A stretch of 64,000 nucleotides of DNA from an uncultured Candidatus Saccharibacteria bacterium. Lineage in GTDB: Bacteria > Patescibacteriota > JABMPQ01 > JAQVVF01. Below, piece after piece: positions 1-64,000 of the stretch (its first letter is position 1; each line of letters starts with the position of its first letter). Where the stretch lies: NCBI GenBank assembly GCA_964574655.1, contig CAZNOH010000002.1, positions 108,596-172,595 of the forward strand, written 5' to 3'. Under the pieces are notes generated by a model. It saw nothing but the letters and a program-made list of their open reading frames with translations. It did no database searches and was not told where the DNA came from. A program made the translations under genes and the position numbers.

Positions 1-468
1 ACATCAAAACCAGTTACTGATAGTCAACCTGGTACTGACCAACCCGGCACTGGCCAGTCAACAGCCGGTACTGTTTGTACTTGTAATAATAATGATACTG
101 ATTCAAGTAAAGATAAAGTTGGTTGCGACACTTTTTGCCAAGGTCAAGGACGTAATGGGGTTAAAACTTTCACACCGCCACAACAAGGCCCTGGACAACA
201 AATATCGGGAACCAGCATCACCAATCCAATCGGAGTTAGTTCGCCGATGGAATTAATCCAAAAAATAATAAATTATGTTTTAGGTATCGTTGGCGCTGTA
301 GCAGTTTTGATTATTATCTATTCAGGCTTTGTCTATATGACATCTCGTGGTAATGAAAAGCAAATAGAATCCGCAAAAAATTCTCTTACTTATGCAATTG
401 TAGGGTTAGTTGTGATTTTTGCTTCAATTATTATTGTTAATGCAGTTATATCGGCTATTGGAGGATAA
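1..468 (+). CDS. 3' part of a larger secreted protein ending in a VirB2/TrbC-like (CPR T4SS-pilin type) two-helix membrane module; 5' end lies outside the window
   Basis: Frame 1 is open from nt 1 to the stop at 466-468. The last ~70 aa carry the IYSGFVYMTSRGNEKQIESAKNSLTYAIVG motif shared with the four downstream pilin genes. The upstream part is Gly/Pro/Thr/Cys-rich. Confidence 0.6.
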   Translation, partial: TSKPVTDSQPGTDQPGTGQSTAGTVCTCNNNDTDSSKDKVGCDTFCQGQGRNGVKTFTPPQQGPGQQISGTSITNPIGVSSPMELIQKIINYVLGIVGAVAVLIIIYSGFVYMTSRGNEKQIESAKNSLTYAIVGLVVIFASIIIVNAVISAIGG

Positions 469-490
469 GAAATAATAATTTTCAATAACC

Positions 491-593
491 AATTTCCAAT
501 TTACAATAAATTTTCAATTCTCAATTTTCAAACTCGAACGGAAAAGGGCTCATTGGAAATTGAGAATTGAAAATTTATTGTAAATTGGAAATT
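491..593. repeat. long inverted repeat: ~37-bp near-perfect arms (aatttccaatttacaataaattttcaattctcaattt / rc), ~29-nt loop with a GC core (aactcgaacgg)
   Basis: Read directly: 491-527 pairs with 557-593. It belongs to the caattt/aaattg word subfamily, also seen at 57081-57217. Confidence 0.85.
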
Positions 594-613
594 GTAAATT
601 ATAACAAAATTAT

Positions 614-1039
614 ATGAAAAAAATATCAATTTTCGTTGCAACATTATTAACAAGTCTTATAACATTTCAAGTAGTCTTTGCAAAATGGGGCCTTGAAAAT
701 TTAGCTGATACAGGCTTGCCACAAGACACACCAGGTGCATTTATCGCTAGAATAGTTAGTTACGCCCTAGGTTTTATTGGCATTATTTTAATAGTAATGA
801 TTATTTACGGCGGATTTTTGTATATGACAGGAGGAGGCAATGAAAAGCAAACAGAAACAGCAAAAAATGTCCTTACCTATGCAATCATTGGCGCTGTTGT
901 AATTTTTTCCGCTTACATTATTGCCAGACTAGTTATTTCTGCTTTGACCTCCGGAGCTACACCAGCTCCAACCACGCAGGAAACAACGCCACCAGCAACA
1001 ACATTGCCGACTACTACGCCACCGGCAACAACACCCTAG
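614..1039 (+). CDS. VirB2/TrbC-like T4SS pilin-module protein with a Thr/Pro-rich C-terminal tail
   Basis: Signal peptide MKKISIFVATLLTSLITFQVVFA. Two hydrophobic helices flank the loop YMTGGGNEKQTETAKNVLTYAIIG. The C-terminus is TPAPTTQETTPPATT. Confidence 0.7.
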   Translation: MKKISIFVATLLTSLITFQVVFAKWGLENLADTGLPQDTPGAFIARIVSYALGFIGIILIVMIIYGGFLYMTGGGNEKQTETAKNVLTYAIIGAVVIFSAYIIARLVISALTSGATPAPTTQETTPPATTLPTTTPPATTP

Positions 1040-1075
1040 TCTAGTCAATTTTAGTCCGTCAATCAAAGTTCTAGT

Positions 1076-1834
1076 TTGCAACAATTAAAAAGAATGTTTA
1101 AAAAAATAATTTTCATTTTCTTATTTATCTTAGTTTTGGGTAACTTATTAGTTCCTCATTTTTCTTTTGCTCAATATGGCTTAGAAGAGGGTCAAAAAAT
1201 TCAAGGATTATCACAAAGCGCGCCAGAAATATTCGTTGGCAGAATAATAAAGGCAGTATTATTAGTTATTGGCGTTATTTTGATAGTCTTAATAATCTAT
1301 GGCGGTTTTACCTATGCGACAGCAATGGGGAACGAACAAAAAATTGAAACAGGCAAAAAAATACTGGTTTACGCTATCATTGGCACGATCATAATCGCTT
1401 TAGCATACGCAATTACTACTTTAGTCATTAATGTTTTATTTCCAAAAGACAAAACAGGAACAACACAAACTCAAGATCCAACAAAAACCGAAGGCCAAGG
1501 GCAAGGCCTTAAGGATCTTCCGGGCTCAAACATGACCATTGATCCTTTTTCTGAAGAAACATGCGTAAAAGTAGGCGAAAAATGTCTTTTTTCTCCGGAA
1601 GCTTCAGTCGAAGATGGAACATTGCATGTTCAAGGCGCAACACCTGCTAATATTTGTTGTAGCGGCCTAGATTGCAATCTCAGCACTCAAACCTGCGTCA
1701 AAAAATGCGCTAATAATGGTGAAAGCTTTGTTAGAGAAACATTAACCAAAAGAGAATATATCCCTTGTTGTTCAGCTGATTTAGTCAGAAACACAGATCT
1801 AAGCAATCCGATATGCTATAAACCAAAATTATAG
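1076..1834 (+). CDS. pilin-module protein with a C-terminal Cys-rich (about 14 Cys) extracellular extension
   Basis: Signal peptide plus IYGGFTYATAMGNEQKIETGKKILVYAIIG motif, then a Cys-rich domain (CVKVGEKC...CCSGLDCN...CVKKC...CCSADL...CY). Confidence 0.65.
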   Translation: MQQLKRMFKKIIFIFLFILVLGNLLVPHFSFAQYGLEEGQKIQGLSQSAPEIFVGRIIKAVLLVIGVILIVLIIYGGFTYATAMGNEQKIETGKKILVYAIIGTIIIALAYAITTLVINVLFPKDKTGTTQTQDPTKTEGQGQGLKDLPGSNMTIDPFSEETCVKVGEKCLFSPEASVEDGTLHVQGATPANICCSGLDCNLSTQTCVKKCANNGESFVRETLTKREYIPCCSADLVRNTDLSNPICYKPKL

Positions 1835-1873
1835 CATATAGCAAAGCCATGATTTTTAATTCTTGATGAATTT

Positions 1874-2278
1874 ATGAATATAGTAAAGAACATAAAAACA
1901 ATATTAATTTGTCTAGTCATATTTTTTAGTTTTCAGATGTTATTGCCAGCACAAGTCTTTTCAGCCGACGATACAGGTGTTCCCGAAATAAATCAACAAA
2001 TGGAGGAATTTGGTTCAACAACTCCAGTCTCAACAGCAGATCTTCCAACATTCGTTGGCAGAATAATAAAATGGGTTATACTAATCATCGGCGTTATTCT
2101 AATCACAGTGATTATTTATGGAGGATTGACCTATGCTACTGCTGCTGGGAGCCAAGAAAAAACAGAGTCAGCCAAAAAGATTTTAGTTTATGCTATAATT
2201 GGTGTGATCATCATTGCCTTGGCCTATGTTCTGACTGATTTTATTATCAATGCTTTATTTGAATCTAGGTCTACATAA
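1874..2278 (+). CDS. VirB2/TrbC-like T4SS pilin-module protein
   Basis: Signal peptide, then IYGGLTYATAAGSQEKTESAKKILVYAIIGVIIIALAYVLTDFIINALF. Confidence 0.7.
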   Translation: MNIVKNIKTILICLVIFFSFQMLLPAQVFSADDTGVPEINQQMEEFGSTTPVSTADLPTFVGRIIKWVILIIGVILITVIIYGGLTYATAAGSQEKTESAKKILVYAIIGVIIIALAYVLTDFIINALFESRST

Positions 2279-2416
2279 AATCCTAAGCTCAAAATCCTAA
2301 AATTCCTAATGTTCAAAACATGGCAATCAATTTATTAGTTATTTAGAATTTTGAATTTATTTAGAATTTTGGATTTAGGATTTAGTATTTTAATTTTAAG
2401 AAAGGGGGTGATAGAA

Positions 2417-2803
2417 TTGACAAAAATATTTGCAAGCATAGCGATCTGCGCAATACTAGTATTATGTGTTGCTCCAGTTTTGGCTGCTCCAGCAAGATCA
2501 AATCCTGGTGATTCAGGACCGCAGAATGCTTTGGAAAACCTTAGAAATGAAGCCAATTATACCACCACTGATTTAATAACATTCATTGGTAGAATCATTA
2601 AATGGGTATTGGGAATAATCGGTGTAGTTATGATTGCTTTATTCGTTTACGGCGGTGTTACATACGCAACTTCAGCTGGTTCTGAAGAAAAAATTGAGAA
2701 TGGTAAGAAAATTATGGTTTACACAATCATTGGTGTTATCATAATTGCTTTGGCATATGTTCTGACAGACTTCATTATTTCAGCTTTATTCCCAACATTC
2801 TAA
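2417..2803 (+). CDS. VirB2/TrbC-like T4SS pilin-module protein (probable TTG start after a strong SD)
   Basis: SD aaagggggtga is followed by in-frame TTG at 2417. Signal peptide LTKIFASIAICAILVLCVAPVLA. Motif VYGGVTYATSAGSEEKIENGKKIMVYTIIG. The track ORF starting at 2351 is probably over-extended. Confidence 0.65.
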   Translation: MTKIFASIAICAILVLCVAPVLAAPARSNPGDSGPQNALENLRNEANYTTTDLITFIGRIIKWVLGIIGVVMIALFVYGGVTYATSAGSEEKIENGKKIMVYTIIGVIIIALAYVLTDFIISALFPTF

Positions 2804-11039: not shown

Positions 11040-11059
11040 TTCATCCTCCCATATGTTTG

Positions 11060-12010: not shown

Positions 12011-12014
12011 ATGT

Positions 12015-49455: not shown

Positions 49456-51846
49456 TTGACGCAAAATATTACGCAGAAATACGTTGAAAAAAATAGCCAT
49501 ATCAATTTGTTAAAAAATAAAGCAAAAATTAAAAAAATACTAATTATTGCAATCTCGCTTGCTTTGATTTTAATACCAACTATTTTTGTTTTTGCGCAAG
49601 GAGCTAGCACACCAACTCCTGAGGGAGCTGGAGCTATCGGAGGAGGTGTTTTGTGGTTGGTGAATTTAATTGTTGGTGGCCTTTGCTACATTTCCGTGGC
49701 AGTGATTTCCTTATTCTTATGGTTGATTGGTACAATCTTTGATTGGATTATTGGTGGCACAACAATAAATGCCAGCGCCATGAATGAAATCGTCACAGCC
49801 GGCTGGGTTATTGTTCGAGACATTCTTAACATTATTTTTGTTCTAGCATTATTAGGAATTGCTTTTGCTACAATCCTAAGAATTGAGTCGTATCATTTTA
49901 AGGCTTTATTGCCAAAATTATTAGTCGCTGCCTTATTAGTTAATTTCAGCAAGACAATTGCTTTAACATTGGTTGATTTTTCAAACGCCATCATGAGCGG
50001 CATAATGGGAACGCAAAATGGCGCCACAGCTTCTGCTTCGCTTTTAGCCTTATTTAATATTTCGAACTTTTTTGAGCTAAGCGCCGTTTTAGGCAAACAG
50101 CTGACTGTATCAAGCACTGAGCCTGCAGTATTGGCAACAAACGTCGCAATTGTAATGTTTTTGGCTATGTTCACGATGGCTTTGGCAGGATTAGCAGTCT
50201 TATTAGTTATCCGTACTGTTGTTTTAATGATTTTAACAGTTTTCTCGCCAGTTGCTTTTGTTTTAAATGTATTGCCAGTAACACAAAAATACGCTTCAAA
50301 ATGGTGGGAAGAATTTACAAAATATTTATTTGTTGGACCAGTAGTTTGTATTTGTTACCTTTTAGCTTTACTTTTTGCTGTCAAATTCTCGCAAGGTGGC
50401 GGTATGCAGGGTCTTAGTAACAATCTCACCTCGCAAGCTTCAAGCAATGTTGGCATGTCTGCAGGCACTATCGGTCAATTTTTTGGTCTAGCCATTGCTT
50501 GTGGAATTATGTTTGTCGGATTTACTTTTGCCAAAGAAGCTGCCGGCGGTCTTGCTGGAGCAGCGATGGGATTAGTGAAAAAGGGATTGTTAGGAGCCGG
50601 TGCCTTGGCTGGTGGATTTGCTTGGAGAAAAGGAAATGAGTCGTTGGCTAGCGGTTCAAAAGGCGCGCTAGGCAGGCTTACTTCTTTAATTGGACAAAAA
50701 GTCTTCAGACGTTCGGCAGAAAAATCTGACAAGTTTGCTGATAATACAAAATTATTAAGTCCAACAGTGCTTGCTGGAATGTGGAAAGAAAGACAAGCTA
50801 TCAGAACATCTAGAGCTATGTCAGGCGCAGCTGGTTTTGCTCATAGCAAATTTAATAAGATTACTAATCGGCTATGGGGTATGGGCGAAGATACAGCTGA
50901 TTATGAACGCCGAGGCCAGCTTGAATCTGTTGATCATCATATGGCAGAAGGAAAGAAATATGGCAAGGGTAATCATTCATATTATCGAAAAGAGCAACGC
51001 GAGGCTTTAGAAAGCAAAGATTACGACAAGGCAGAAGCCATGGACAATTTACTTGCCCAAGATGGCAATATAAATGAAGCGCATAGAGAAGAGGAATTGG
51101 GTAGCAATGTTTCTAACTTTGAATATGATGAAAATGGGGATCCAATAAAAGATTCTGCAGGAAATGCAATTAAAATTCCAGAGAGACAAATTGGAAAAGA
51201 TGCAAGTGGAAAACCAATTATGGTCGGTGGCAATGTTCGAAGCTTTAATAAGGAAGCCTATATAGATCGTTTGATTACCACTTTTGGCAAAAAGAGAGGT
51301 ATTGAAATTATGGCTGGTCAAAACGAGAGTCATCGAAGAAATGGCAACTGGGCTTTTGCCGAAATTGTCGATGTAGATGAAAAAGGGGAATTAAAAATAA
51401 ATGCAAAACAAGCAGACAATTCTGCTGGAGAATGGAATAAAAAAGCAGGCCGGCAAGGTTTGGATGGACAAAGATTTCCACTGTTCAAGGAAAGCTATGG
51501 CACCGATGGCAGTGTAGTTGATGTCCAAGTTGATCCAGTGCTTATAGCAAAAATCAAAAATTCTGGTATTGGCGAAGACTGGACAAAGAATATCGGTTTT
51601 GCGCCTGATGCCAACAAGAGAATGCTAAATCAATTTAGAGGAAAATTGTACAAACAAATACAAGATACTGCCATGCCTCAGTCACATAAGGATTCCGCCG
51701 TAAAAATGATTCAAGCGGCAGTAAAAGCAACCGGCGGGGCAGGAAAGGCTGTCCATTATAAAGGAGTTAAAATGACTTCTGATGAGCTAGATGCCGAAAT
51801 TGATTTTGATGCAATTCTACCTCCAACGCCACCTCCAACGCCTTAA
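49456..51846 (+). CDS. polytopic membrane protein with a long hydrophilic C-terminal region; VirB6/TrbL-like T4SS channel candidate
   Basis: About 8 hydrophobic segments in the first 400 aa, then a 400-aa soluble tail. Its position at the head of the VirB3/VirB4 cluster is why I suggest VirB6. I see no sequence motif I can name. Confidence 0.4.
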   Translation: MTQNITQKYVEKNSHINLLKNKAKIKKILIIAISLALILIPTIFVFAQGASTPTPEGAGAIGGGVLWLVNLIVGGLCYISVAVISLFLWLIGTIFDWIIGGTTINASAMNEIVTAGWVIVRDILNIIFVLALLGIAFATILRIESYHFKALLPKLLVAALLVNFSKTIALTLVDFSNAIMSGIMGTQNGATASASLLALFNISNFFELSAVLGKQLTVSSTEPAVLATNVAIVMFLAMFTMALAGLAVLLVIRTVVLMILTVFSPVAFVLNVLPVTQKYASKWWEEFTKYLFVGPVVCICYLLALLFAVKFSQGGGMQGLSNNLTSQASSNVGMSAGTIGQFFGLAIACGIMFVGFTFAKEAAGGLAGAAMGLVKKGLLGAGALAGGFAWRKGNESLASGSKGALGRLTSLIGQKVFRRSAEKSDKFADNTKLLSPTVLAGMWKERQAIRTSRAMSGAAGFAHSKFNKITNRLWGMGEDTADYERRGQLESVDHHMAEGKKYGKGNHSYYRKEQREALESKDYDKAEAMDNLLAQDGNINEAHREEELGSNVSNFEYDENGDPIKDSAGNAIKIPERQIGKDASGKPIMVGGNVRSFNKEAYIDRLITTFGKKRGIEIMAGQNESHRRNGNWAFAEIVDVDEKGELKINAKQADNSAGEWNKKAGRQGLDGQRFPLFKESYGTDGSVVDVQVDPVLIAKIKNSGIGEDWTKNIGFAPDANKRMLNQFRGKLYKQIQDTAMPQSHKDSAVKMIQAAVKATGGAGKAVHYKGVKMTSDELDAEIDFDAILPPTPPPTP

Positions 51847-53458: not shown

Positions 53459-53893
53459 ATGCAATACCCAATTCCACAATTTGTTGAAATAGAGGACCAG
53501 ATTATTGGCCCGCTCACTCTCAAACAGTTTTTCTTTTTGCTTGGTGGTGGAATATTTCTATTGATTTCCTGGTCTTTTGTTGATCTCGCATTATTTATTT
53601 TTTTAGCAGTTATCGTTGGTTTCATAGTCGTGCCATTGGCTTTTGTCAAGCCATACGGACGTCCGTTGACAAATTATCTTTCCGCAGTTTTTAAATATAT
53701 ACTTGGCCCAAAGATACTAGTCTGGCACAAAAGTAGCAGAGCTCCAAGAGTAAAAGCTTATGATCTTGCAAATAAAAAGAAAGGTCCTGAAAAAATTACA
53801 ATCGGCGAAAAAAAGTATACACCGAGCAGTATTCACCGATTGGCAAGGCAATTAGATTTTAAGACAGTAATGAGCGAAGACGAAAAGAAGTAA
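53459..53893 (+). CDS. PrgI-family / VirB3-like small T4SS membrane protein
   Basis: MQYPIPQFVEIEDQIIGPLTLKQFFFLLGGGIFLLI, then a second TM. This matches the PrgI-family N-terminal signature and precedes VirB4. Confidence 0.55.
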   Translation: MQYPIPQFVEIEDQIIGPLTLKQFFFLLGGGIFLLISWSFVDLALFIFLAVIVGFIVVPLAFVKPYGRPLTNYLSAVFKYILGPKILVWHKSSRAPRVKAYDLANKKKGPEKITIGEKKYTPSSIHRLARQLDFKTVMSEDEKK

Positions 53894-53956: not shown

Positions 53957-54313
53957 ATGCTTAAAGAAAAAGATAAGCAATACGATTTAGAAGAAAGAAC
54001 CGCAAAATTTGCAGAAGGCATAATCGATCTTTGCCAAGGCCTACCGCAAACAGCAATTACTAAGTCAACGATAAGCCAGATAATTCGTTCAAGCTCAAGT
54101 ATCGGCGCAAACTATTGCGAAGCAAACGGCGCAAGCTCAAAAAAAGATTTTAGGAACAAAATATTTATCTGTAAGAAAGAAGCTCAGGAAACACGATATT
54201 GGATAAGAATATTGGCTAAATGTTTACCAAACAAAAAAGAAGACTTGCGAAATCATTGGAAGGAGTGTCAAGAATTAACACTAATTTTTGGTAAAATTGC
54301 ATCAAAGTTATAG
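53957..54313 (+). CDS. four-helix-bundle protein (TIGR02436, 23S-rRNA-IVS-type family)
   Basis: About 118 aa. EERTAKFAEGIIDLCQGLP...IIRSSSSIGANYCEANGASSKKDFRNKIFICKKEAQETRYWIRIL. Confidence 0.7.
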   Translation: MLKEKDKQYDLEERTAKFAEGIIDLCQGLPQTAITKSTISQIIRSSSSIGANYCEANGASSKKDFRNKIFICKKEAQETRYWIRILAKCLPNKKEDLRNHWKECQELTLIFGKIASKL

Positions 54314-54377: not shown

Positions 54378-55121
54378 ATGCTTAAAAAAGAAAAAAAAGA
54401 AGAAAAGAAAGTTGAAGTAAAACAAGAAGAAGAAACAATGCTTTCAAGTAAAGCAGCAAAGAAAGAAGAAGAGTCAACTCAGAAATTTTTGAATGTCGCT
54501 GGAATCAGAGATGGAATTATAATTCTAAAAAACAAAGCATTGCGGGCAATAGTGATGTGTTCATCAATTAATTTTGCTTTGATGTCTGAAGATGAACAAA
54601 AAGCTAAGGTTTTTGGCTATCAAGATTTTTTAAATTCATTAAATTTTCCAGTGCAAATCGTTATCCAAACTAGAAAGCTAAACATCGCAGGCTATCTAGA
54701 AAAAGTCAAAGAAGCTGAAAGAATGCAAGACAATGAATTGTTAAGAATGCAGACAGCTGAATACGCTGAATTTATAAAATCAATGGTAGAATTAGGAAAT
54801 ATTACTACTTCTCATTATTATGTTTCAATACCTTATTCTCCAGCTGGAATTGAAGCAACTGAATCAATAATGGATAAAATCAAAGGAATTATTTCGCCAG
54901 CGTCAAAAATAAAAGAAGAACAAGTTGGTTTCCAAAAACAACAAGAGGAGCTTTTGCTTCGCGTAAATACAGTAATCAGCGGACTTGGAGGAGTTGGAAT
55001 TCAATCCGCGCAACTTAATACTCAAGAAGTAGTTGAGCTCTTGTATTCATGGTATAATCCAGATGAAAGCACTACTGAAATACTTGGAGAATTGGAAAAG
55101 CTTAAGATTGAACAAGCCTAA
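54378..55121 (+). CDS. VirB4/TrbE/CagE-family protein, N-terminal domain only (split gene, part 1)
   Basis: FLNVAGIRDGIIILKNKALRAIVMCSSINFALMSEDEQKAKVFGYQDFLNSLNFPVQIVIQTRKL resembles the VirB4 N-terminal (CagE_TrbE_VirB) region. The ORF ends at a stop before the repeat element. Confidence 0.55.
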   Translation: MLKKEKKEEKKVEVKQEEETMLSSKAAKKEEESTQKFLNVAGIRDGIIILKNKALRAIVMCSSINFALMSEDEQKAKVFGYQDFLNSLNFPVQIVIQTRKLNIAGYLEKVKEAERMQDNELLRMQTAEYAEFIKSMVELGNITTSHYYVSIPYSPAGIEATESIMDKIKGIISPASKIKEEQVGFQKQQEELLLRVNTVISGLGGVGIQSAQLNTQEVVELLYSWYNPDESTTEILGELEKLKIEQA

Positions 55122-55244: not shown

Positions 55245-57080
55245 ATGCAAGATAAAGACTTACCAATCGGTAAAAAAAATATTGAAAATATAAGTCAAGC
55301 CGAGCAAGAAGAGATTCTTAAGGCTGAAGAAATTTACAGAAAGGGTCTGGTTTCGATTCGCGATATTATTGCGCCAAGTGCTTTGCAAGTCAATCCAAAT
55401 TATCTTAAATTAGGTGATAAGTTCGTCAGAACTATATTCATTTTTACTTATCCTCGTTTTGTCAATACTGGCTGGTTTGCTCCAGTCATTAATATGAATA
55501 TTGAAGCTGATATGGCAATGTATATTTCACCTGTTGAATCAGAAAAAATATTAAAAACATTAAAAAATAAAGTAGGACAAATTCAGTCAACTATTGCCGG
55601 AAAACAGGAAAAAGGTGATGTCCGAGATCCAATGCTAGAAACAGCATTAAATGATGTTGAAGAACTTCGTGATCGTTTAATTCAGGGCACAGAAAGATTT
55701 TTCCATTTTGCATTATATATCACTCTTTATGAGAATTCTGAAAAAAAACTAGATAAAACCACCAAAGAAATAGAGGATCTATTAGGTCAAAGACTGATCT
55801 ATTCAAAGCGAGCATTTTTTCAAGCTGAACAAGGATTTAATACCACAACGCCATTAGGTCTTGACGAGCTTGGCGTTCTTAACAATTTTAATACTTCACC
55901 TTTATCAACTAGTTTTCCATTTGTTTCTTCGGAATTGACTTCTGATGAAGGCATTCTTTATGGAATCAACCGCCACAATAATAGCTTGATTTTATTTGAT
56001 CGTTTCTCCTTGCCAAATGCCAATTCAGTAGTATTCGCCACATCTGGTGCTGGTAAAAGTTACGCCGTTAAATTAGAAATATTAAGGTCTTTAATGTTTG
56101 GTACAGAAGTTATAGTCATTGATCCAGAAAATGAATATAAATATTTATGTGAATCAGTCGGCGGAACATTTTTGAAAATGTCTCTAGAGTCAGAATACAG
56201 ATTGAATCCTTTTGATCTGCCATCTGCAATTTCTGGAATGAAAACCAAAGATATTATTCGGTCAGCAGTTATTAATATAAAAGGTTTGCTTAGAATTATG
56301 CTTGGTCGTTTGACAAAAGAAGAAGATGCTTTGCTTGATAGCGCAATTATTCAAACTTACGCCAAAAAAGATATAACTCCAGATTCTGATTTATCAAAAA
56401 TAGAAGTTCCAACAATGAAAGATTTGCAAGAAATTCTTGAAGGCATGCAAGGAGCAGAAGACATTGTTCCAAGAATAAAAAAATATACAGAAGGAACTTT
56501 TGCCGGTCTTTTGAATCAGGCAACCAATGTCCAAATTGACAATCCATTTGTTGTTTTTAGCATTAGAGATTTAGAGGACGAGTTACGTCCAATTGCCATG
56601 TATGTTATTTTAAATCACATCTGGAATATCGTCAGAGCTCAAATGAAAAAAAGAATTCTAGTTGTCGATGAAGCATGGTGGATGATGCAATATGAAGAAT
56701 CAGCCAGATTTATGTATGGCATTGCCAAAAGAGGAAGAAAATATTATCTAGGCACAACAACAATTTCTCAAGATGTTAATGATTTCTTAACATCAGATTA
56801 TGGAAAAGCAATCGTAACAAATTCCGCATTGCAATTGTTATTAAAGCAGTCTCCAGCCTCTATTGATTTATTAAAAAAAACTTTTTATTTAACTGAAGAA
56901 GAAAAATATTTATTATTAGAATCAGATGTTGGTGAAGGAATTTTCTTTGCAGGTTCAAAACATGTTGCAATAAAAATAGTTGCCTCATATTCTGAAGATC
57001 AGATTATTACAACAGATCCAAAACAATTACTAGAGCTAGAACAGGCTAAGAAAAATTACGAAGAAGAGCAAAACGCATAA
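55245..57080 (+). CDS. VirB4/TrbE-family T4SS ATPase, central and C-terminal ATPase part (split gene, part 2)
   Basis: IIAPSALQVNPNYLKLGDKFVRTIFIFTYPRFV, Walker A FATSGAGKSYAV, Walker B ILVVDEAWWMM. Confidence 0.65.
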   Translation: MQDKDLPIGKKNIENISQAEQEEILKAEEIYRKGLVSIRDIIAPSALQVNPNYLKLGDKFVRTIFIFTYPRFVNTGWFAPVINMNIEADMAMYISPVESEKILKTLKNKVGQIQSTIAGKQEKGDVRDPMLETALNDVEELRDRLIQGTERFFHFALYITLYENSEKKLDKTTKEIEDLLGQRLIYSKRAFFQAEQGFNTTTPLGLDELGVLNNFNTSPLSTSFPFVSSELTSDEGILYGINRHNNSLILFDRFSLPNANSVVFATSGAGKSYAVKLEILRSLMFGTEVIVIDPENEYKYLCESVGGTFLKMSLESEYRLNPFDLPSAISGMKTKDIIRSAVINIKGLLRIMLGRLTKEEDALLDSAIIQTYAKKDITPDSDLSKIEVPTMKDLQEILEGMQGAEDIVPRIKKYTEGTFAGLLNQATNVQIDNPFVVFSIRDLEDELRPIAMYVILNHIWNIVRAQMKKRILVVDEAWWMMQYEESARFMYGIAKRGRKYYLGTTTISQDVNDFLTSDYGKAIVTNSALQLLLKQSPASIDLLKKTFYLTEEEKYLLLESDVGEGIFFAGSKHVAIKIVASYSEDQIITTDPKQLLELEQAKKNYEEEQNA

Positions 57081-57886: not shown

Positions 57887-58020
57887 AAATAATAATACGA
57901 ATGCGGATACGAATAATGCAAATGTTGCGAATTGCGAATCGTCGTATTCGTAATTCGTATCATTCGCATCATTCGCATTATTCGTACGTTTATTCGTATT
58001 ATGTATAGACGATTTATAAA
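57887..58020. repeat. intergenic palindromic element, tacgaat/attcgta subfamily (centre gcgaattgcgaatcgtcgtattcg)
   Basis: taatacgaatgcggatacgaataatgcaaatgttgcgaattgcgaatcgtcgtattcgtaattcgtatcattcgcatcattcgcattattcgtacgtttattcgtattat. Confidence 0.8.
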
Positions 58021-58046
58021 AAACAGACATATTTTACAAGGAAAGC

Positions 58047-58697
58047 ATGAAAAATATATCTAGCAATATTAACAGAGAACTATTTTATTATGAAAAACTA
58101 AAGGAGATTAAACACAAAAAAAAATCATCCCCTGATTTTGGGAATTACAAAAACTCTTTTTCAACTAATTATGGAGCGCATCTCATTAATCAAAAAAACA
58201 TTATTAAATTTGATGGCGCTGAAGCAGTTGAGGATTATGAGCAAGATGTAGAATCAATGCCCAATACTGTTGCCAGAGGTCAAGAAGGTGGTAATTATGA
58301 GCAATTCAATCGGCTGAAGAACGAAGCAATGAAAAGAGCAAAAAAAAGCAAAGGCGCAACTGAAAAAGCCACGAAAGTTGCCAAAGCTGCAAAACAGCTT
58401 AAGAGCATGAAAAATATAAAAAATTTATATAATTTAGTAAAAATTGCCTTTACCGTTGATCTTGTAACAGTTGTAGTCACATTAGTAATTATGTTCATTC
58501 AATTCTTCGGTGGAAATGTTTTTAAATCAAAATACATTCCTCCGCTTGGTAAAATAGAATTGCTTCTCTTTATTCCAATTCTACTCTCTGCTTCAGCCTC
58601 TACGCTTGTTTTTGTACTACCGACGATTATAGGCACAGGATTGCTTGGCAGTGCCTATGCAGGCCTTGCAAATTTAATTGGTAATGTTGGTATATAA
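58047..58697 (+). CDS. hypothetical protein with C-terminal TM helices (T4SS-like cluster)
   Basis: Lys-rich middle. C-terminal hydrophobic segments VTVVVTLVIMFIQFF and LLLFIPILLSASASTLVFVLPTIIGTGLLG. Confidence 0.5.
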   Translation: MKNISSNINRELFYYEKLKEIKHKKKSSPDFGNYKNSFSTNYGAHLINQKNIIKFDGAEAVEDYEQDVESMPNTVARGQEGGNYEQFNRLKNEAMKRAKKSKGATEKATKVAKAAKQLKSMKNIKNLYNLVKIAFTVDLVTVVVTLVIMFIQFFGGNVFKSKYIPPLGKIELLLFIPILLSASASTLVFVLPTIIGTGLLGSAYAGLANLIGNVGI

Positions 58698-58700
58698 AAT

Positions 58701-60185
58701 ATGAACAAAAACAAAATAATCATTTTTCTAGGTCTATTATTGTTATTAATAGGCTTCAACCAATCCTTCGCGCAAGAAGAAGGCGAGTTTGTGGTGCCTG
58801 ATGAGTTCAAAAAGATTATCAATATTGATCCAAACAACATAACTGGCAAGGATATCATAAGCATCATGCCCTTGAGTGTTACGCTAGACTATTCACCACA
58901 GCCAGTTTCTGCAACTAGCCCAGTTAAAGTAACAGCCCAAGTAATTAGTAGCACTAAATCAGATGGTGTTAGTTTTCGTTGGTTTTTGGATGGTCAAGAA
59001 AAAAAAGCTAGCAATTCTGTTTTTCAGTTTAATATGAACGAGGGGTTAGTGAATCAAGACTTGCGTTGTGGCGATTATCGGGAAGTGAAAGTTGAAGCAA
59101 TAAATTCTAATACCAAAGAAAAAGCTATTTCTATTTTAAAAATTCCAATTGGATTAAATCTATCATTTAACAAGAGATCTATTGGCGTTGCTGACCAAAA
59201 CAATCCAAATACCATAAATTTTAATTTATACAAAGCTGATATATCAACTGACAGTATTGCTTTGCAAGTTCCTGATATTTTTCTAAAACCAACGTCTACT
59301 CAAAATCAATTTCGTTTCAGTGACATTGTGCAAGTTGAAGCCATTGATTTGAGAAATACATACAATAATCAGGCTTGCGGTTCAACATCAAGTTATACTA
59401 ATTTAGATAGCTATTTAAATAGTCTTACTTATCAATGGTCTTATAATGGAACTTCACAGCAAGGAAAAAGTGGAAAAGGCGAAAATTTTAAGAAAGCTTC
59501 ATTCGTTATTAGCACTTTGCCATCGCAATTAATTCAAAATGACTTAGCATCCTGCGGTGCTTCAGAATCTCAGAATATTAATATCGTTGGTCTGACAATT
59601 ACTGATTCTTATGGCAAGGTATTGGCCCAAAAAGAAGAATCTCTAGATGTTATTGCTCCTCAAATCAATGTCAAGCCTATTTGTGGCGCATTTGGAAAGA
59701 ATATTCAATGCGTTAATATCAATTCCACAAACCTAAAATCATCTTACGGTGTTTCCCAAAGTTATCAGCTCAATCCAAATCAAGAAATCAATTTGCAAGC
59801 AAGTTTAGGTAGCTTTCAACCTTCTCAAAAATTAGATATAACATGGAAGGTTAATAACCAAGAGATTGATAATAAAATAGTTGAAGATCCCAATACGCCA
59901 TATTTTACTTCACCAAGCATCAAGATGGGAAGTCAAATTCAAATTGTTGAAGTAAGCGTTATAAATAGTGTTTATAACTCTAATCAAACAGAAAATGCTT
60001 CCCAAAAAATTGTCTTAACGCCAAGCCAAGAAAGAGCGCAGGTATCTACAGCTGGAACACTTGGGTCACTGCAAAAATTCTTGCCGAAAAACTTTAAAAG
60101 TTTATATAATTATATTGCAGTTGCCGGTTTGTTAGGAATAATTATTTTATTAATAACCATAAAAGAAAAGAAAAAAAATGGATAG
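58701..60185 (+). CDS. secreted protein with a C-terminal TM anchor (T4SS-like cluster)
   Basis: Signal peptide MNKNKIIIFLGLLLLLIGFNQSFA and C-terminal IAVAGLLGIIILLITI. Confidence 0.5.
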   Translation: MNKNKIIIFLGLLLLLIGFNQSFAQEEGEFVVPDEFKKIINIDPNNITGKDIISIMPLSVTLDYSPQPVSATSPVKVTAQVISSTKSDGVSFRWFLDGQEKKASNSVFQFNMNEGLVNQDLRCGDYREVKVEAINSNTKEKAISILKIPIGLNLSFNKRSIGVADQNNPNTINFNLYKADISTDSIALQVPDIFLKPTSTQNQFRFSDIVQVEAIDLRNTYNNQACGSTSSYTNLDSYLNSLTYQWSYNGTSQQGKSGKGENFKKASFVISTLPSQLIQNDLASCGASESQNINIVGLTITDSYGKVLAQKEESLDVIAPQINVKPICGAFGKNIQCVNINSTNLKSSYGVSQSYQLNPNQEINLQASLGSFQPSQKLDITWKVNNQEIDNKIVEDPNTPYFTSPSIKMGSQIQIVEVSVINSVYNSNQTENASQKIVLTPSQERAQVSTAGTLGSLQKFLPKNFKSLYNYIAVAGLLGIIILLITIKEKKKNG

Positions 60186-61419
60186 AAAAAGAATTTTAAT
60201 TATTATCGGAATAATTGCATTGATTATTGCTTTCGCAGTAACAATTTATTTTGTAATTTTTCGTCAACAAAAAAAAGTAGCTTCAGATCTTCCGCCTTTG
60301 ACAACAGAAGAGCAACAAAGATTAAAATTAACAACTGAAGAAAGGCAAGCAGGCATCACTGAAGATAAAAAAATTCAGCAATATGTCGCTGAAAAAAGGC
60401 AGGAAATTGCCGTACAAAAAGCAGTAACTGATACAAACAAGTACAAAGTCATTCCAGTCTTAAACCAAAAAACAATCAGTCCAACATTATCAGCTGATTT
60501 CAGCAAGCTTATTTTTTATAGTCCAGAAAATAAAGATTTTTATGTCGCAAATTTAGACGGCAGCCAGCCGTCTCCAATTACATCAAGCGGAATTGACAAA
60601 GTCTATGATATATCATGGTCCAAGAAAAAAGATCGCGCAGTAATGACATTGTCTGACAATCAGGGTTTGACTAGAAATTATTTAATCTTTGACATTAATA
60701 ATCAAAAACAAACAACAGTTGATTCCAGTATCAAATCTCCGACATTGTCGCCTGATGGTGAAAAAATCGCTTATTTATTCTTAGATAAAGCATCCGGCAC
60801 CTCAAATATTTCTGTCTCAAACCTTGACGGTTCTAACTGGAACAGCGTTTCTCCTTTTGAAGGCGAATTTCCAATTATCAATTGGAATTTAGAATCAAAA
60901 TTAATTTATTATAGTAAGCCTGATACTCAAAATAATGCCATTGCCTTTGCCGCCAATATTATTGGCAAGAGCTTCAATCAGTTAGTTAGCAATTATGGTC
61001 TTAATGTCAATGTATCAAATGATGGTAATAAAATTGTTTATTCTGGTCAAAATGTTGCAAGTGCGACAACAACGAATTTGCAATTTTATGATATGCAGGC
61101 TAGCAAAAATATTGATTTAGGCGTTCAAACTTTTGCTGATAAGTGTACTTGGTTGCCAGATAACAAAAATTTAATTTGCGCTATCCCAGAAAATTTAAGC
61201 AAATGTATGATTATGCCAGATGCCTATAATAATTATAATTTTATTTCCAAAGATTCTTTCTATATAGTTGATACTCAAAATAATAAGACCACAAAATTAG
61301 CAAGTACTAGTCAATTCTCGCAAGACTATGATGTCTACAAGCCTTTTATGCTTGGCGAAAAAATAATGTATTTCACAAGACGGCAGGATGGATTATTGTA
61401 TGCGTTTGTAATACCATGA
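60178..61419 (+). CDS. N-terminally anchored protein with a TolB/PD40-like beta-propeller-type periplasmic domain
   Basis: TM at residues 6-27. Repeated segments such as LSPDGEKIAYLF, NLDGSNWNSVSP and VSNDGNKIVYSG resemble PD40 blades. Confidence 0.45.
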   Translation: MDRKRILIIIGIIALIIAFAVTIYFVIFRQQKKVASDLPPLTTEEQQRLKLTTEERQAGITEDKKIQQYVAEKRQEIAVQKAVTDTNKYKVIPVLNQKTISPTLSADFSKLIFYSPENKDFYVANLDGSQPSPITSSGIDKVYDISWSKKKDRAVMTLSDNQGLTRNYLIFDINNQKQTTVDSSIKSPTLSPDGEKIAYLFLDKASGTSNISVSNLDGSNWNSVSPFEGEFPIINWNLESKLIYYSKPDTQNNAIAFAANIIGKSFNQLVSNYGLNVNVSNDGNKIVYSGQNVASATTTNLQFYDMQASKNIDLGVQTFADKCTWLPDNKNLICAIPENLSKCMIMPDAYNNYNFISKDSFYIVDTQNNKTTKLASTSQFSQDYDVYKPFMLGEKIMYFTRRQDGLLYAFVIP

Positions 61420-61558
61420 AGTTAAAACACAAAATCCTAAATTCTAAATACTAAACAAATTCAAATTAAAAAAATAAAAATCCAAAAGTTGTTTTATATT
61501 TTGAGTTTTGGACATTTAGATTTGTTTAGGATTTAGAATTTAGTGCTTAGGATTTTTT
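61420..61558. repeat. intergenic palindromic element, ctaaat/atttag subfamily
   Basis: aaatcctaaattctaaatactaaacaaattcaaattaaaaaaataaaaatccaaaagttgttttatattttgagttttggacatttagatttgtttaggatttagaatttagtgcttaggatt. Confidence 0.75.
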
Positions 61559-63208
61559 TTGGATATGATCACAAAGCTCAAAAAATTAATTTATACATTA
61601 ATAATATTTCTATATATTCTTCTTTTTGTATCTCCTTTTCTTTCTGCCCAAGCTGCTTGTCCACAAGGAAAAGTAGTATTAGTCGGAGATTCGGTTACAA
61701 ATGCTTATGGACCTGTCTTTAAGTCGCAATGTCCTGATGCTCAAGTTGATATTTATGCAACTGATGGTCAATCAACAAGCAGTATGCGATCATCATTTGA
61801 TAGCAACATATTGAATAAGGGTTACAGCCAAGTAATCATACTGGGTGGTGTAAACAATATCGGAAATGTCAGTGCAGTTGAAAATGATCTTCAATATATG
61901 TACAGCAAAGCAAAACAATCTGGTATTGCTGTTACAGCTGTAACAATCACTCCGTGGAAAGGTTATAGCACTTGGAGCGACGACAAACAAAGAAATACCG
62001 AGAATATTAATAATTGGATTTTAGGGTCGGCTAAGGATGTTGATAATAGAGTTAATGCTTATCAATCATTAGTAGATCCTAATAATCCTGGTGCTTTACG
62101 ACCAGAATATACTACAGATAAGCTACATCCAAATACTTCAGCTGGAAAACAAGCTCTATCTTCAACAATCTCTGGTTCATCTTTTTCAGCTCCAACCGGT
62201 CAGACTCAATCACCAATTCCTGGCACTGATGGTACAGCGCCAATTACAGCAACAGATACAACAGCCGCGCCGCCTACCTATGAACGGACATCAACATTGA
62301 TTTCTGGTAATAGCGCTTGCGAAATCTGGAAGAACGCATTTAATCTAGGCATCTCATTCATCGGCGTTATTGCATTAGCTGGAGTAATTTGGGGCGGATT
62401 TGGTTATATTACTTCTTATGGCAATCAGGAAAAAGTAACTTCTGCAAAAGAAACAATTTGGGGATCAGTTACTGGATTATTTATTGGACTTTTTGCTTAT
62501 GTCTTATTCTCAATGATTAATCCTTATGTTTTACAATGTAAAATAGAAGCGCCGTTTAAATTGAGTAAAAACGGGTCTGGGACTAATAATCCTTCTGGAA
62601 ATAATGGAACAGATACGGGACCTGGCGCAACGCCCACGACAGGAGAAATAAAAGATTGTGAAAATGCTTTTGTTGTAAAATTGCCTTATGACACTGTAAT
62701 AAAGCAAGCTGCAGAAGCAAACAGAATTGATCCGCATTTTTTGAAAGCTATAATAAGAATAGAATCAGGCTTTGGCGCAAACATTGGTCCTTCTAGTGCT
62801 GGAGCTTATGGTATTTCTCAATTTATGCCAGGCACTTTTGCTGGCATGGCACCTTCTGGAGTTCCTGACTCTTGCAAAAAAAAATCTGGCCAAAGTACAG
62901 CTATCGGTGGCTATTGCGTAAATGAAAAAGGTAGAAATCCAGCTTGTTGCCAAGCAAGTCCAAAAAGCTGTCAGCAGGAATATGCACCGGATTGTATGGC
63001 TTGGATAAAAAATCATCCTAACGAAATGATATATGTATCAGCAAAATTACTAGCTATAAACAAAAGGAATTCAAATGGTAGCTATTTTGATGCTGCTGCA
63101 AAATATAATGGCGGTGCTGGTTATTATCGGCAAGCTGGTCCGCAAGGCTATGCCCGAAGTGCTGCCAATTACGATGCTACGTATTGCAAGCAATCAGGCG
63201 GACAGTAA
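61559..63208 (+). CDS. composite protein: SGNH/GDSL-like hydrolase, internal pilin-type two-helix membrane module, and a C-terminal lytic-transglycosylase (SLT, VirB1-like) domain
   Basis: GDSVTNAYG (GDS(L) motif). The internal module is VIWGGFGYITSYGNQEKVTSAKETIWGSVTGLFIG. The SLT signature is IIRIESGFGANIGPSSAGAYGISQFMPGTF. Confidence 0.6.
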   Translation: MDMITKLKKLIYTLIIFLYILLFVSPFLSAQAACPQGKVVLVGDSVTNAYGPVFKSQCPDAQVDIYATDGQSTSSMRSSFDSNILNKGYSQVIILGGVNNIGNVSAVENDLQYMYSKAKQSGIAVTAVTITPWKGYSTWSDDKQRNTENINNWILGSAKDVDNRVNAYQSLVDPNNPGALRPEYTTDKLHPNTSAGKQALSSTISGSSFSAPTGQTQSPIPGTDGTAPITATDTTAAPPTYERTSTLISGNSACEIWKNAFNLGISFIGVIALAGVIWGGFGYITSYGNQEKVTSAKETIWGSVTGLFIGLFAYVLFSMINPYVLQCKIEAPFKLSKNGSGTNNPSGNNGTDTGPGATPTTGEIKDCENAFVVKLPYDTVIKQAAEANRIDPHFLKAIIRIESGFGANIGPSSAGAYGISQFMPGTFAGMAPSGVPDSCKKKSGQSTAIGGYCVNEKGRNPACCQASPKSCQQEYAPDCMAWIKNHPNEMIYVSAKLLAINKRNSNGSYFDAAAKYNGGAGYYRQAGPQGYARSAANYDATYCKQSGGQ

Positions 63209-63230: not shown

Positions 63231-64000
63231 ATGAAGATAAGATCAAAAATTTTAATAATTTCAATTGTACTTCTTATTACGGTAATAATAGGATCTTTAG
63301 TGATACAATATTTTTTTAAAAACAGAAGTGAAAATCAGCTAAATGCCGCATTGGAACAAGTCAATAGCGGCAACCCATTATCTGTAGAGGAAAATAATAT
63401 AATAAAGCGCTTGGTATCTGGCGAATCAATTTATTATCCAAATTTATCAAACGATGGAAAAGAGCTCGTTTATTTTTCAAACGATAAAAATAATTTTGTA
63501 ATTGCAAACCTAGATACAAAAAAAAGTCTTCTCCCTATGCCATTCGAAAAAATTGATAAAATTCTTGACATTACCTGGCTAGCAAATAATAAAATTGCTT
63601 TAGTAAAAAGTGCGAAAGAAAATTTAGAAGAAGGAACAGCTACACAAGAGTATTCAATTTACGATTTAAATAACAAAAAAAGGATTTCTTTGACGAATTT
63701 TAACAACGGATTAATAATTAATGATTCTCAATTCATTTATCAAAATTCAGAAGACGGTGCATTATATCTTTCTGATTACGAACAACAAAATCCCGAAGTG
63801 CTTATCAGATTTAATAATCCAGAGGATGCATTAAAAATTGTTTTTATCAGTACAAATAGCCAGTTCCTTTATTATTTGTATCCAGCTCAAGGCTCAGATA
63901 AATATAGTTTGCATCGTTTTGAATATGCCAACAGGGAGGATAAGATAATCACCGAAAATATCAATGCCACGCTATCTGACAAAAGTGGCACAAAAATATT
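63231..64000 (+). CDS. 5' part of a paralog of 60178-61419 (TM plus PD40-like repeats); runs off the window
   Basis: MKIRSKILIISIVLLITVIIGSLVI, then LSNDGKELVYFS. Open to nt 64000. Confidence 0.5.
   Translation, partial: MKIRSKILIISIVLLITVIIGSLVIQYFFKNRSENQLNAALEQVNSGNPLSVEENNIIKRLVSGESIYYPNLSNDGKELVYFSNDKNNFVIANLDTKKSLLPMPFEKIDKILDITWLANNKIALVKSAKENLEEGTATQEYSIYDLNNKKRISLTNFNNGLIINDSQFIYQNSEDGALYLSDYEQQNPEVLIRFNNPEDALKIVFISTNSQFLYYLYPAQGSDKYSLHRFEYANREDKIITENINATLSDKSGTKI

Follow-up and report, generated by a model that had tools for sequence, protein, structure and literature searches.

A VirB2-like pilin hairpin joins an SGNH esterase and a lytic transglycosylase in a type IV secretion locus of the candidate phyla radiation

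A 64,000-nucleotide stretch of contig CAZNOH010000002.1 (positions 108,596 to 172,595 of the forward strand), assembled from an uncultured Candidatus Saccharibacteria bacterium of the Patescibacteria or candidate phyla radiation (CPR) and referred to here as the window, encodes a 547-amino-acid (aa) fusion protein in which an SGNH/GDSL esterase domain and a GH23 (SLT-type) lytic transglycosylase domain stand on either side of an internal VirB2-like pilin hairpin. The fusion gene is part of a chromosomal type IV secretion system (T4SS) locus, and its domain content, conservation and setting point to a membrane-anchored, outward-facing esterase–transglycosylase that would act as the pilin-docked VirB1-equivalent of that system, a reading to which we give a probability of roughly 0.55. 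What this analysis adds is the breadth of such fusions across the CPR, the modular exchange of their ectodomains and a downstream β-propeller gene that co-evolves with them.

Domain architecture of the fusion protein

The sole long open reading frame (ORF) at positions 61559..63208 of the window (+ strand) has a TTG start at 61559 and encodes 549 aa in the ORF listing. The public gene call, P0001 on a 251-kb contig, is 100% identical to the fusion protein and begins at the ATG at 61565, and the residue numbers used here follow this 547-aa form. The initial annotation of the window had quoted three strings as the marks of a GDS(L)-type hydrolase, a central two-helix segment of the pilin type and a C-terminal lytic transglycosylase, and all three (VVLVGDSVTNAYG, IWGGFGYITSYGNQEKVTSAKETIWG and ESGF...SSAGAYGISQFMPGTF) occur in the translation. 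A Pfam search, set beforehand as a possible refutation, backs the SGNH, T4SS_pilin and SLT modules, and the SLT and SGNH assignments stand. The coordinates of all features are collected in Table 2.

The N-terminal enzyme domain carries SGNH blocks I (G41-D42-S43), II (G68), III (G95-x-N97) and V (D185-x-x-H188), and the residues G41, S43, G68, G95, N97 and H188 are invariant among 13 tri-module sequences that range down to 21% identity. In the full-length AlphaFold2 (AF2) model, the domain has a predicted local distance difference test score (pLDDT) of 87–94 and adopts the flavodoxin-like α/β/α fold of the SGNH hydrolases, for which Foldseek returned a probability of 1.0, E-values of 4.5e-8 to 1e-4 and target TM-scores of ~0.7 against SGNH structures of ~200 aa. 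The best Foldseek match in the PDB is the polyvinyl-alcohol esterase 9kr1 (E 4.5e-8), in agreement with a phmmer search of the PDB (9kr0, E 7e-8), and further matches include the acetyl-xylan esterase PbeAcXE of carbohydrate esterase family 20 (7toh), Bacteroides acylhydrolases and the sialate O-acetylesterase 6njc. The Foldseek list also includes the C-terminal transferase domain of OatA (E 4.2e-4) and 8gr2 (C. jejuni CJ0610C, E 1.7e-4), a possible Ape1 that was not used as evidence. The closest relative of the SGNH domain outside the family, P0007, is fused to an M23 peptidoglycan peptidase. By motifs and fold, the fusion protein belongs to the SGNH/GDSL hydrolase superfamily. The O-acetyl-esterase-like character put forward in the initial annotation is borne out by the invariant blocks, a pLDDT of ~90 and the Foldseek matches to O-acetyl esterases, but the likeness is not specifically to the esterase Ape1.

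At the C-terminal end, Pfam SLT (PF01464) matches aa 378–429 at 40.4 bits, well over its cutoff of 21.3 bits (E 2.5e-10), and in the homologues P0004 and P0005 the match covers profile positions 2–106 of 117. The domain holds the motifs E400-S401, G-I-S-Q419 and K-Y514-N-G-G517, together with a Cys-rich insert at ~437–477. Within the alignment of the 13 tri-module sequences E400, Q419 and G517 are invariant and S401 nearly so; E400 and Q419 are invariant again, and S401 again nearly so, in an alignment of 38 sequences that share the hairpin and the SLT domain, and Y514 and G517 of the K-Y-N-G-G motif are conserved. An AF2 model of aa 245–547, built on a deeper alignment, gave a pLDDT of 96–98 for the SLT core. 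The top 50 Foldseek matches in the PDB were all lytic transglycosylases or phage lysins, among them Slt70, LtgA (5mpq, 5o2n and 6h5f), MltE, MltF, MltC, MltD, T7 gp16 and φKZ gp144. Profile, motifs and the goose-lysozyme-like α-helical fold place the protein in the GH23/SLT superfamily, in line with the C-terminal SLT-type transglycosylase of the initial annotation; in NCBIfam there was just a partial match to a flagellar lytic transglycosylase model. It should be noted that, according to a reference cited in PMC12102498, the 'SLT' domains of some Gram-positive T4SSs work as muramidases.

Between the two enzyme domains, which measure 176 and 183 aa, lies a helix-loop-helix hairpin whose two long helices (pLDDT 84–93 in the model of aa 245–547) are joined by a short polar loop and flanked by Cys252 and Cys325, both invariant in the close family. 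The hairpin matches five array pilins of the same genome in phmmer searches (E 1e-9 to 2e-7) and shares their signature. The resemblance to the pilin array claimed initially is thereby confirmed for five paralogues, with the amendment that the array is 59 kb away, at positions 1–2800 of the window. Pfam PF18895 matches 62 of 71 related hairpin proteins, and four of these proteins also match TrbC/VirB2 (PF04956). The fusion protein carries a pilin module yet is no stand-alone pilin, because the hairpin is internal and has enzyme domains on both sides.

Hydropathy identified three hydrophobic segments, at 1–33, 257–284 and 297–323, the last two being the helices of the hairpin. With an N-terminal signal or anchor helix that starts inside, the parity of these three segments places both enzymes outside, and all 12 of the 12 cysteines fall in segments predicted to be outside. 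The topology prediction called for by the initial annotation thus has both enzyme domains facing outward; the signal peptide may be cleaved, and the orientation of the hairpin is the one that we infer from this topology.

Distribution of related fusions

An exhaustive profile search of 1.84 billion representative proteins returned 15,397 hits at E <1e-3, most of which were single-domain SGNH or SLT proteins, and architectures were annotated with hidden Markov models of the modules for 149 of the top 150 representatives. The pilin hairpin is borne by 71 of these 149, in most cases fused to SLT, SGNH or both. The order of the modules varies: hairpin–SLT is the architecture of 30 representatives (plus variants), SGNH–hairpin–SLT of 10, hairpin–…–SGNH of nine, SGNH–hairpin of four and hairpin–SLT–SGNH of two, and the hairpin is missing from five SGNH–SLT and four SLT–SGNH proteins. 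Four proteins have 2–4 hairpins followed by SLT (P0014, P0066, P0022 and P0067), and seven consist of 3–6 tandem hairpins alone (P0072, P0098, P0079, P0096, P0134, P0077 and P0123). The latter are covalent pilin concatemers, one of which is mis-annotated as a 'succinate dehydrogenase hydrophobic anchor subunit'. Curated Pfam models applied to the 71 hairpin proteins matched T4SS_pilin in 62, SLT in 57 and Lipase_GDSL_2 in 23.

All of the named homologues derive from metagenome-assembled genomes (MAGs) of Patescibacteria, with members named to the Parcubacteria group, Doudnabacteria, Andersenbacteria and Falkowbacteria. Current annotation labels them just as 'SLT domain-containing', 'GDSL-type esterase' or 'hypothetical'. 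The close tri-module family is rare, with seven proteins in a set of 5.8 billion sequences (a word-index search, which misses the wider family), and the same seven were recovered with a single-sequence query and with the 13-sequence profile. Among ~185,000 species genomes, the close family occurs in one MAG, on two contigs. This MAG, STF1_73, holds two alleles or paralogues of the tri-module gene, P0006 and P0004 (L006, JAQVVF010000008.1, and L007, JAQVVF010000022.1). The view that the three-part architecture is unusual and without a described equivalent is therefore in need of revision in its first half: the architecture is not rare, recurring across CPR lineages in several domain orders, but it is undescribed in the literature searched. 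Pilin–hydrolase fusions and GDSL domains go unmentioned in the papers on CPR T4SSs, VirB2 arrays and VirB1 homologues, the last with M23 or LysM, and no description of pilin–hydrolase fusions was found in the literature searched, which is not proof that there is none.

Synteny, divergence and exchange of the ectodomains

The fusion gene shares its strand with virB4, which lies 4.5 kb upstream, and orthologues in syntenic positions were found at five further loci. From virB4 through the fusion gene to the downstream propeller gene, the order of the genes is kept in L002 (645-kb contig), L005 and L008, the last with a Parcubacteria protein that is 34% identical to the fusion protein; L004 (7-kb contig) keeps the gene order over the stretch covered and ends short of virB4, and in L016 virB4 is on the opposite strand at a distance of ~10 kb. 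Short contigs have no bearing on the linkage. With VirB4, PrgI and a TraC-like protein encoded upstream on the same strand and this order kept in other loci, the T4SS setting supposed in the initial annotation is well founded.

Immediately downstream of the fusion gene, a membrane-anchored β-propeller with a weak PD40 match has homologues in L002, L004, L005, L008 and L012 and, weakly, in L011 and L015. A propeller gene follows the hairpin–hydrolase gene in L001, L002, L004, L005, L008, L011 and L012, and twice in L015. The propeller encoded upstream of the fusion gene is a conserved paralogue of this downstream partner, with orthologues in L008, L015 and L016. L015 (Doudnabacteria, JAGQLO010000003.1) contains a hairpin–SLT–SGNH gene, a propeller, a second pilin fusion and a second propeller. 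The second fusion (L015:5009-6829) encodes 606 aa, in which T4SS_pilin at 44 bits is followed by an SLT-like stretch and then by Amidase_2 at 77 bits, and the downstream-type propeller that belongs to it is at L015:6832-8043. This arrangement is a tandem duplication of the hydrolase and propeller unit with different enzymes.

Rates of change were compared between the window and L002 (Table 1), with synonymous sites near saturation throughout (proportion of synonymous differences, pS, 0.52–0.75). Compared with the hairpin and the T4SS core, the ectodomains and downstream propeller evolve at about ten times the pace, and the ratio of nonsynonymous to synonymous change (dN/dS) is 0.07 for the hairpin and 0.32–0.42, still below 1, for the fast genes and domains. 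The identity of the hairpin (~91% against ~43% for the enzyme domains) had been considered as exceptional; this was dropped, as such identity is the norm of the cluster (VirB4 95%, PrgI 89%) and it is the ectodomains that are anomalous. Recent DNA exchange was likewise rejected as the cause of the hairpin identity, because the synonymous sites of the hairpin are themselves near saturation (pS 0.40–0.57), and its conservation is thus the result of purifying selection.

Table 1. Divergence of genes and domains between the window and locus L002 (dN, nonsynonymous divergence with Jukes–Cantor correction)
Gene or domain	Identity	dN
VirB4	95%	0.04
PrgI	89%	0.10
TraC-like protein	87%	0.07
Upstream propeller	87%	0.07
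Hairpin of the fusion protein	88%	0.07
SGNH domain	40%	0.67
SLT domain	35%	0.76
Downstream propeller	35%	0.67
471-aa, 222-aa, 216-aa and 494-aa cluster genes	62–78%	0.14–0.26

The relationships among the window, L002, L004 and L005 were compared along the locus in a distance-based four-taxon bootstrap with 1000 replicates. Three upstream genes and the segment of linker 1 plus hairpin group the window with L005 and L002 with L004 (959–1000 of 1000 replicates); the SGNH domain groups the window with L002 and L004 with L005 (1000 of 1000); and the SLT domain groups the window with L004 and L002 with L005 (1000 of 1000), a topology that 905 of 1000 replicates also give for the downstream propeller. 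These three mutually incongruent topologies, which come from four loci and saturated distances, indicate that the fusion gene is probably a mosaic in which ectodomain cassettes have been swapped on either side of a conserved hairpin. The SLT cassette appears to travel with the downstream propeller, an adjacent gene that co-varies and is co-inherited with that cassette in the manner of an effector–immunity-like pair. A further mosaic is P0006, cut short by a contig end, in which a P0005-like N-terminal part is joined to the P0003-like start of an SLT region.

A proposed mechanism and its alternatives

Under the preferred reading, the N-terminal signal or anchor helix would export the SGNH esterase, and the VirB2-like hairpin, passing out-in-out, would re-anchor the chain and leave the GH23 transglycosylase facing outward too, with each enzyme on a disordered tether of ~30–45 residues. 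The hairpin would dock the protein in the membrane platform that handles VirB2-like pilins (VirB4, VirB3/PrgI and the VirB6-like protein). There, the SGNH domain may strip O-acyl groups, most likely O-acetyl, from glycan strands, and the transglycosylase, which needs a free C6 hydroxyl on N-acetylmuramic acid (MurNAc), would then cut the strand, such that a wall, be it that of the producer or that of a host, may open locally for passage of the T4SS or its pilus. Such a protein would amount to VirB1, PrgK or TraG together with an Ape1-like helper, joined covalently on a pilin tether. O-acetylation at MurNAc C6 blocks lytic transglycosylases and the SGNH esterase Ape1 lifts the block, and the Neisseria enzymes LtgA and Ape1 associate in a complex, each stimulating the other (PMC7083599). 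From what is known of lytic transglycosylases and esterases, the order suggested in the initial annotation, in which de-O-acetylation would precede cleavage, can soundly be inferred. The hairpin matches VirB4 and PrgI in its degree of conservation, and this speaks for contact with conserved parts of the machine, while the repeated, order-independent fusion of SGNH domains with SLT, M23 and pilin modules argues for action of the SGNH domain on the wall.

Several observations weigh against this assignment. The SGNH domain of the fusion protein scores 30.4 bits with Lipase_GDSL_2 (aa 41–191), just below the cutoff of 32.9 that its homologues P0002 (40.3 bits), P0007 (59.2) and P0016 (54.9) pass, and the Asp of block V is not kept in the closest homologues, P0002–P0005. 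The nearest solved relatives of the domain are generic polymer and carbohydrate esterases rather than Ape1, and neither Pfam nor AF2 places a CBM35 module beside it between the signal helix and linker 1; for these two reasons, no CBM35 and nearest solved relatives other than Ape1, the fusion protein is not classed with the Ape1 family. The match of the hairpin to T4SS_pilin (PF18895, aa 253–317) is 26.6 bits, exactly the 26.6 cutoff of that model, and a search of the PDB with a pilin profile gave no significant match, whether to a pilin or to any other structure; to our knowledge, no structure of a CPR T4SS pilus exists. The module also sits by radA and recG in loci where virB4 is 10 kb off or not on the contig, so that the linkage to the T4SS could be positional instead of functional. 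Additionally, fast and exchanging ectodomains are atypical of a housekeeping VirB1 and fit a target-facing role better.

The target-facing role is taken furthest by a reading in which the hairpin is a carrier signal and the enzymes are displayed on the pilus, at its tip or sparsely along its shaft, where they would breach the O-acetylated wall of a host; the VirB4 machinery would pull the protein from the membrane like a pilin, both pilin termini would face outward with the enzymes tethered to them, and the downstream propeller would be the cognate immunity protein or regulator. This is possible, if somewhat unlikely in our estimation. It would account for the dN of 0.67–0.76 in the ectodomains and downstream propeller against 0.04–0.10 in the T4SS core, hairpin and upstream propeller, for the three incongruent topologies (each at 96–100% bootstrap, with the propeller sharing that of the SLT domain), for the natural mosaic P0006 and for the tandem duplication with different enzymes in L015, and polypeptides in which 2–4 hairpins precede SLT are in keeping with assembly into a pilin polymer. 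For Southlakia, both the pilins and the T4SS are essential to epibiotic growth, and a pilus that serves as a conduit to the host has been suggested (PMC10633639; PMC12857230). Conversely, no CPR T4SS pilus is on record, nor are minor pilins on one, two passengers of ~20 kDa per subunit may clash sterically with pilus packing, the β-propeller is without similarity to known immunity proteins, and no host is named for the lineage. Relaxed constraint can also give fast evolution, and the dN/dS of 0.32–0.42 stays below 1 and was obtained with saturated synonymous sites. A broader claim, that the CPR use the VirB2-like hairpin as a universal carrier of interchangeable, fast-diversifying wall-degrading ectodomains (SLT, SGNH and Amidase_2) at or on the T4SS pilus against host walls, each with a cognate, co-evolving membrane-anchored propeller, is tentative to the same degree; if true, it would provide a concrete molecular route by which epibionts breach their hosts.

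Two further readings concern the T4SS link and the substrate. A housekeeping autolysin of growth or division, one of a small number of wall hydrolases in a reduced genome, for which the hairpin is a convenient two-helix anchor and the proximity to the T4SS historical, would explain why the position by radA and recG is kept across Parcubacteria, Doudnabacteria and Falkowbacteria loci and why the hairpin–SLT gene of L012 is beside alanyl-tRNA synthetase with no T4SS gene on its 5.5-kb contig, and VirB1 homologues are not strongly associated with virB4 in most Patescibacteria classes (PMC12102498). We consider it distinctly unlikely, as one would not expect a hydrolase with housekeeping duties to be what evolves fastest and recombines in a locus, the anchor is of the T4SS_pilin type in particular, with a VirB4- and PrgI-like conservation that argues for conserved partners, and in the window, L002, L005 and L008 the gene and virB4 remain contiguous on one strand. 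Unlikely, too, is that just the SLT domain works on peptidoglycan, the SGNH domain deacylating a different polymer of the envelope (teichoic or teichuronic acid, capsule or extracellular polysaccharide, or a host glycolipid) or being an O-acetyltransferase of the PatB/OatA-C type. The polyvinyl-alcohol, acetyl-xylan and sialate O-acetyl esterases that are its best structural neighbours, the match to the transferase domain of OatA, the lack of CBM35 and the lack of pat genes among the ORFs scanned speak for such a substrate or activity; homologous SGNH domains are, however, repeatedly fused to SLT, to M23 or in a 'pilin + unknown + SGNH' order, the transferases in question need an MBOAT/AT3 membrane partner that is absent from the protein and its neighbours, and the S/G/N/H residues, the complete set usual in hydrolases, are all invariant. 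That the gene is an artefact, be it a chimera of the assembly, a gene call that fuses separate genes or a pseudogene in decay, is extremely improbable. Nothing was found in favour of this, while the tri-module frame recurs in independent assemblies from NCBI, JGI, ENA and Logan, the catalytic residues are invariant, and strong purifying selection acts on the hairpin, whose synonymous sites are saturated; the fusion gene is real and under selection.

Relationship to known systems

The fusion protein shares with the VirB1-type hydrolases (VirB1 of A. tumefaciens and, from Gram-positive systems, PrgK of pCF10, TraG of pIP501 and CwlT of ICEBs1) an SLT/GH23-type domain encoded together with a T4SS. 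Processed VirB1* binds the T-pilus non-covalently, whereas the pilin-like part of the fusion protein is covalent. The VirB1-type hydrolases of monoderms are, like the fusion protein, anchored in the membrane and equipped with a second wall-active domain (PMC12102498; PMC12857230). This second domain is CHAP, LytM or NlpC/P60 in those hydrolases and an SGNH esterase in the fusion protein, and the anchor is a plain N-terminal transmembrane helix in the former and an internal pilin hairpin between the enzymes in the latter. A second likeness is to the pairing of a GH23 lytic transglycosylase with an SGNH de-O-acetylase in LtgA and Ape1, LtgA being among the best Foldseek matches of the SLT domain. 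LtgA and Ape1 are separate periplasmic proteins of a diderm, whereas the fusion combines both activities in one polypeptide of a monoderm CPR bacterium; furthermore, Ape1 is described as bi-modular, with SGNH and CBM35 (10.1101/2021.09.23.461501), and the SGNH domain of the fusion protein is without CBM35.

Within the Patescibacteria, VirB2-like pilin arrays are widespread, and they are essential in Southlakia (PMC12102498; PMC10633639). The PF18895 arrays of Southlakia epibionticum and Nanosynbacter lyticus TM7x belong to the same hairpin family as the fusion and show the same signature, but the described array pilins are small, stand-alone and mutually ~25% identical, whereas the hairpin of the fusion is internal and ~90% conserved between relatives. 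A multi-domain wall enzyme encoded in a CPR T4SS locus is known from Southlakia as well: SEML1_0006 is a multi-domain peptidoglycan glycosidase, essential by transposon sequencing, for which the sources list a phage-tail lysozyme (PF18013) and a glucosaminidase (PF01832) domain and, unlike in the fusion, no pilin or SGNH domain (PMC10633639 supplementary tables; PMC12102498).

A peptidoglycan-degrading T4SS protein with an adjacent cognate gene is also found in the X-Tfe/X-Tfi pairs, to which the neighbour of the fusion gene, co-varying with the SLT cassette, bears a likeness. The X-Tfe of Xanthomonas are soluble antibacterial T4SS effectors recognised by VirD4 through a C-terminal signal, and the X-Tfi are their cognate immunity proteins. 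Unlike an X-Tfe, the fusion protein has a pilin hairpin, its neighbour is a membrane-anchored β-propeller and no coupling protein was found among the ORFs scanned.

In the single species of Patescibacteria that allowed a test, the T4SS is essential for epibiotic growth, and its role and the reason why a monoderm T4SS has pilins are open questions (PMC10633639; PMC12857230). A conserved protein in which a pilin module is covalently joined to two enzymes that modify the wall gives the pilin system a physical tie to the breaching of cell walls and may be regarded as a natural covalent version of the LtgA–Ape1 partnership. Additionally, current annotation labels hide what appears to be a modular, recombining system of hydrolase cassettes. 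For specialists of T4SSs and the CPR, both the covalent VirB2–VirB1-type link and the dynamics of the cassettes are surprising and testable, although the lineages that carry them are uncultured.

Genomic context

The window is AT-rich (GC ~0.32) and chromosomal, as it encodes IF-2, RNase Y, RecF, a UvrD-like helicase, KsgA and PFK, and the T4SS cluster within it begins with a large polytopic membrane protein that has a 748-aa counterpart at the same position in L002 (Table 2). Neither a coupling protein nor a relaxase was found among the window ORFs scanned, and most CPR T4SS loci are reported to be likewise without them (PMC12102498; PMC10633639).

Table 2. Features of the window, with positions on its forward strand and residues of the 547-aa fusion protein
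Feature	Position	Strand	Residues	Evidence and remarks
Fusion gene	61565..63208	+	1–547	From ATG 61565; signal/anchor, SGNH, linker, pilin hairpin, linker, SLT
N-terminal signal peptide or membrane anchor	61565..61651	+	1–29	KLKK n-region, hydrophobic helix, SAQA/A; hydropathy 1–33, AF2 helix 2–22
SGNH/GDSL esterase ectodomain	61652..62179	+	30–205	Pfam, motif conservation, AF2, Foldseek, PDB phmmer
Linker 1, Thr/Pro/Gly-rich, disordered	62180..62308	+	206–248	pLDDT <50 at 210–252
VirB2-like T4SS_pilin helix-loop-helix hairpin	62309..62560	+	249–332	Pfam, phmmer, AF2, dN
Linker 2, Gly/Thr/Asn-rich, disordered	62561..62656	+	333–364	pLDDT <50; 326–360 in the full-length AF2 model
GH23 (SLT, family-1-type) lytic transglycosylase ectodomain	62657..63205	+	365–547	Pfam, motifs, AF2, Foldseek
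Downstream partner, N-terminally membrane-anchored PD40/TolB-like β-propeller	63231..64000	+		Extends past the window edge; 373 aa when complete (L001)
Upstream membrane-anchored β-propeller, PD40/Tricorn-like	60178..61419	+		413 aa; Pfam; L002 orthologue 87% identical
Three envelope proteins	57218–60185	+		222, 216 and 494 aa
VirB4-type T4SS ATPase	55245..57080	+		Pfam P-loop_TraG (92 bits), CagE_TrbE_VirB; L002 orthologue 95% identical
TraC-like T4SS accessory protein	54378..55121	+		L002 orthologue, 87% identical, has PF26593 TraC-like
23S-rRNA-IVP-type small protein	53957–54313	+		118 aa, four-helix bundle; between the PrgI and TraC-like genes
PrgI (VirB3-like) T4SS protein	53459..53893	+		Pfam PrgI, 35.9 bits
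471-aa protein	51871–53286	+		
Polytopic membrane protein, cluster head	49456..51846	+		796 aa; VirB6-like by position and topology alone; no Pfam match
Array of five VirB2-like T4SS_pilin paralogues	1..2803	+		<1–465, 614–1039, 1076–1834, 1874–2278, 2351–2803

Two pilins of the array bear Cys-rich extracellular extensions, N-terminal in the partial ORF 1–465 and C-terminal, of ~110 aa, in the 252-aa ORF 1076–1834, so that in the pilin array, too, the hairpin is a scaffold on which passenger domains are carried. In L002, the homologue of the 23S_rRNA_IVP protein is 40% identical and placed differently, after the TraC-like gene, and the VirB4 orthologue (L002:3646-5480) was called as two ORFs of 514 and 83 aa that are jointly 95–99% identical to the 611-aa VirB4 of the window. 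This split may be a frameshift, an assembly error or real.

A scan for promoters and terminators around the fusion gene gave nothing above chance. An inverted repeat upstream of the gene was considered as a gene-specific operator and rejected, since it is a copy of an element dispersed genome-wide. This palindromic intergenic element of ~140 nt occurs in the window at 61420-61565, 2275-2400, 11863-12010, 34944-35095, 36059-36209 and 42355-42494 and consists of a left arm of 3–4 AAATYCT-type heptamers, an AT-rich centre and a right arm of 3–4 TTTAGRA heptamers. One copy ends at the start codon of the fusion gene and another precedes a pilin gene, and the 17-mer TAGGATTTAGAATTTAG has 27 matches with up to three mismatches against 0.69 expected. 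The element may be related to repetitive extragenic palindromes or miniature inverted-repeat transposable elements, or may act as a terminator or regulatory hairpin.

A local rise in GC at 10001-12000 of the window (0.48 against ~0.32), with overlapping ORFs on both strands, may represent foreign DNA. Rfam found no rRNA or other family at 10–12 kb except the adjacent tRNA-Leu (12014–12098), and the main ORFs there, 10119–11039 (-) and 11060–11875 (-), have no Pfam match. Elsewhere in the window are two large proteins of the secreted type, an 865-aa GH18 chitinase-like protein with fn3 repeats (22970-25567, -) and a 746-aa protein with three lamin-tail domains and an OB fold (17693-19933, +), both of which may act on the cell surface or on a host.

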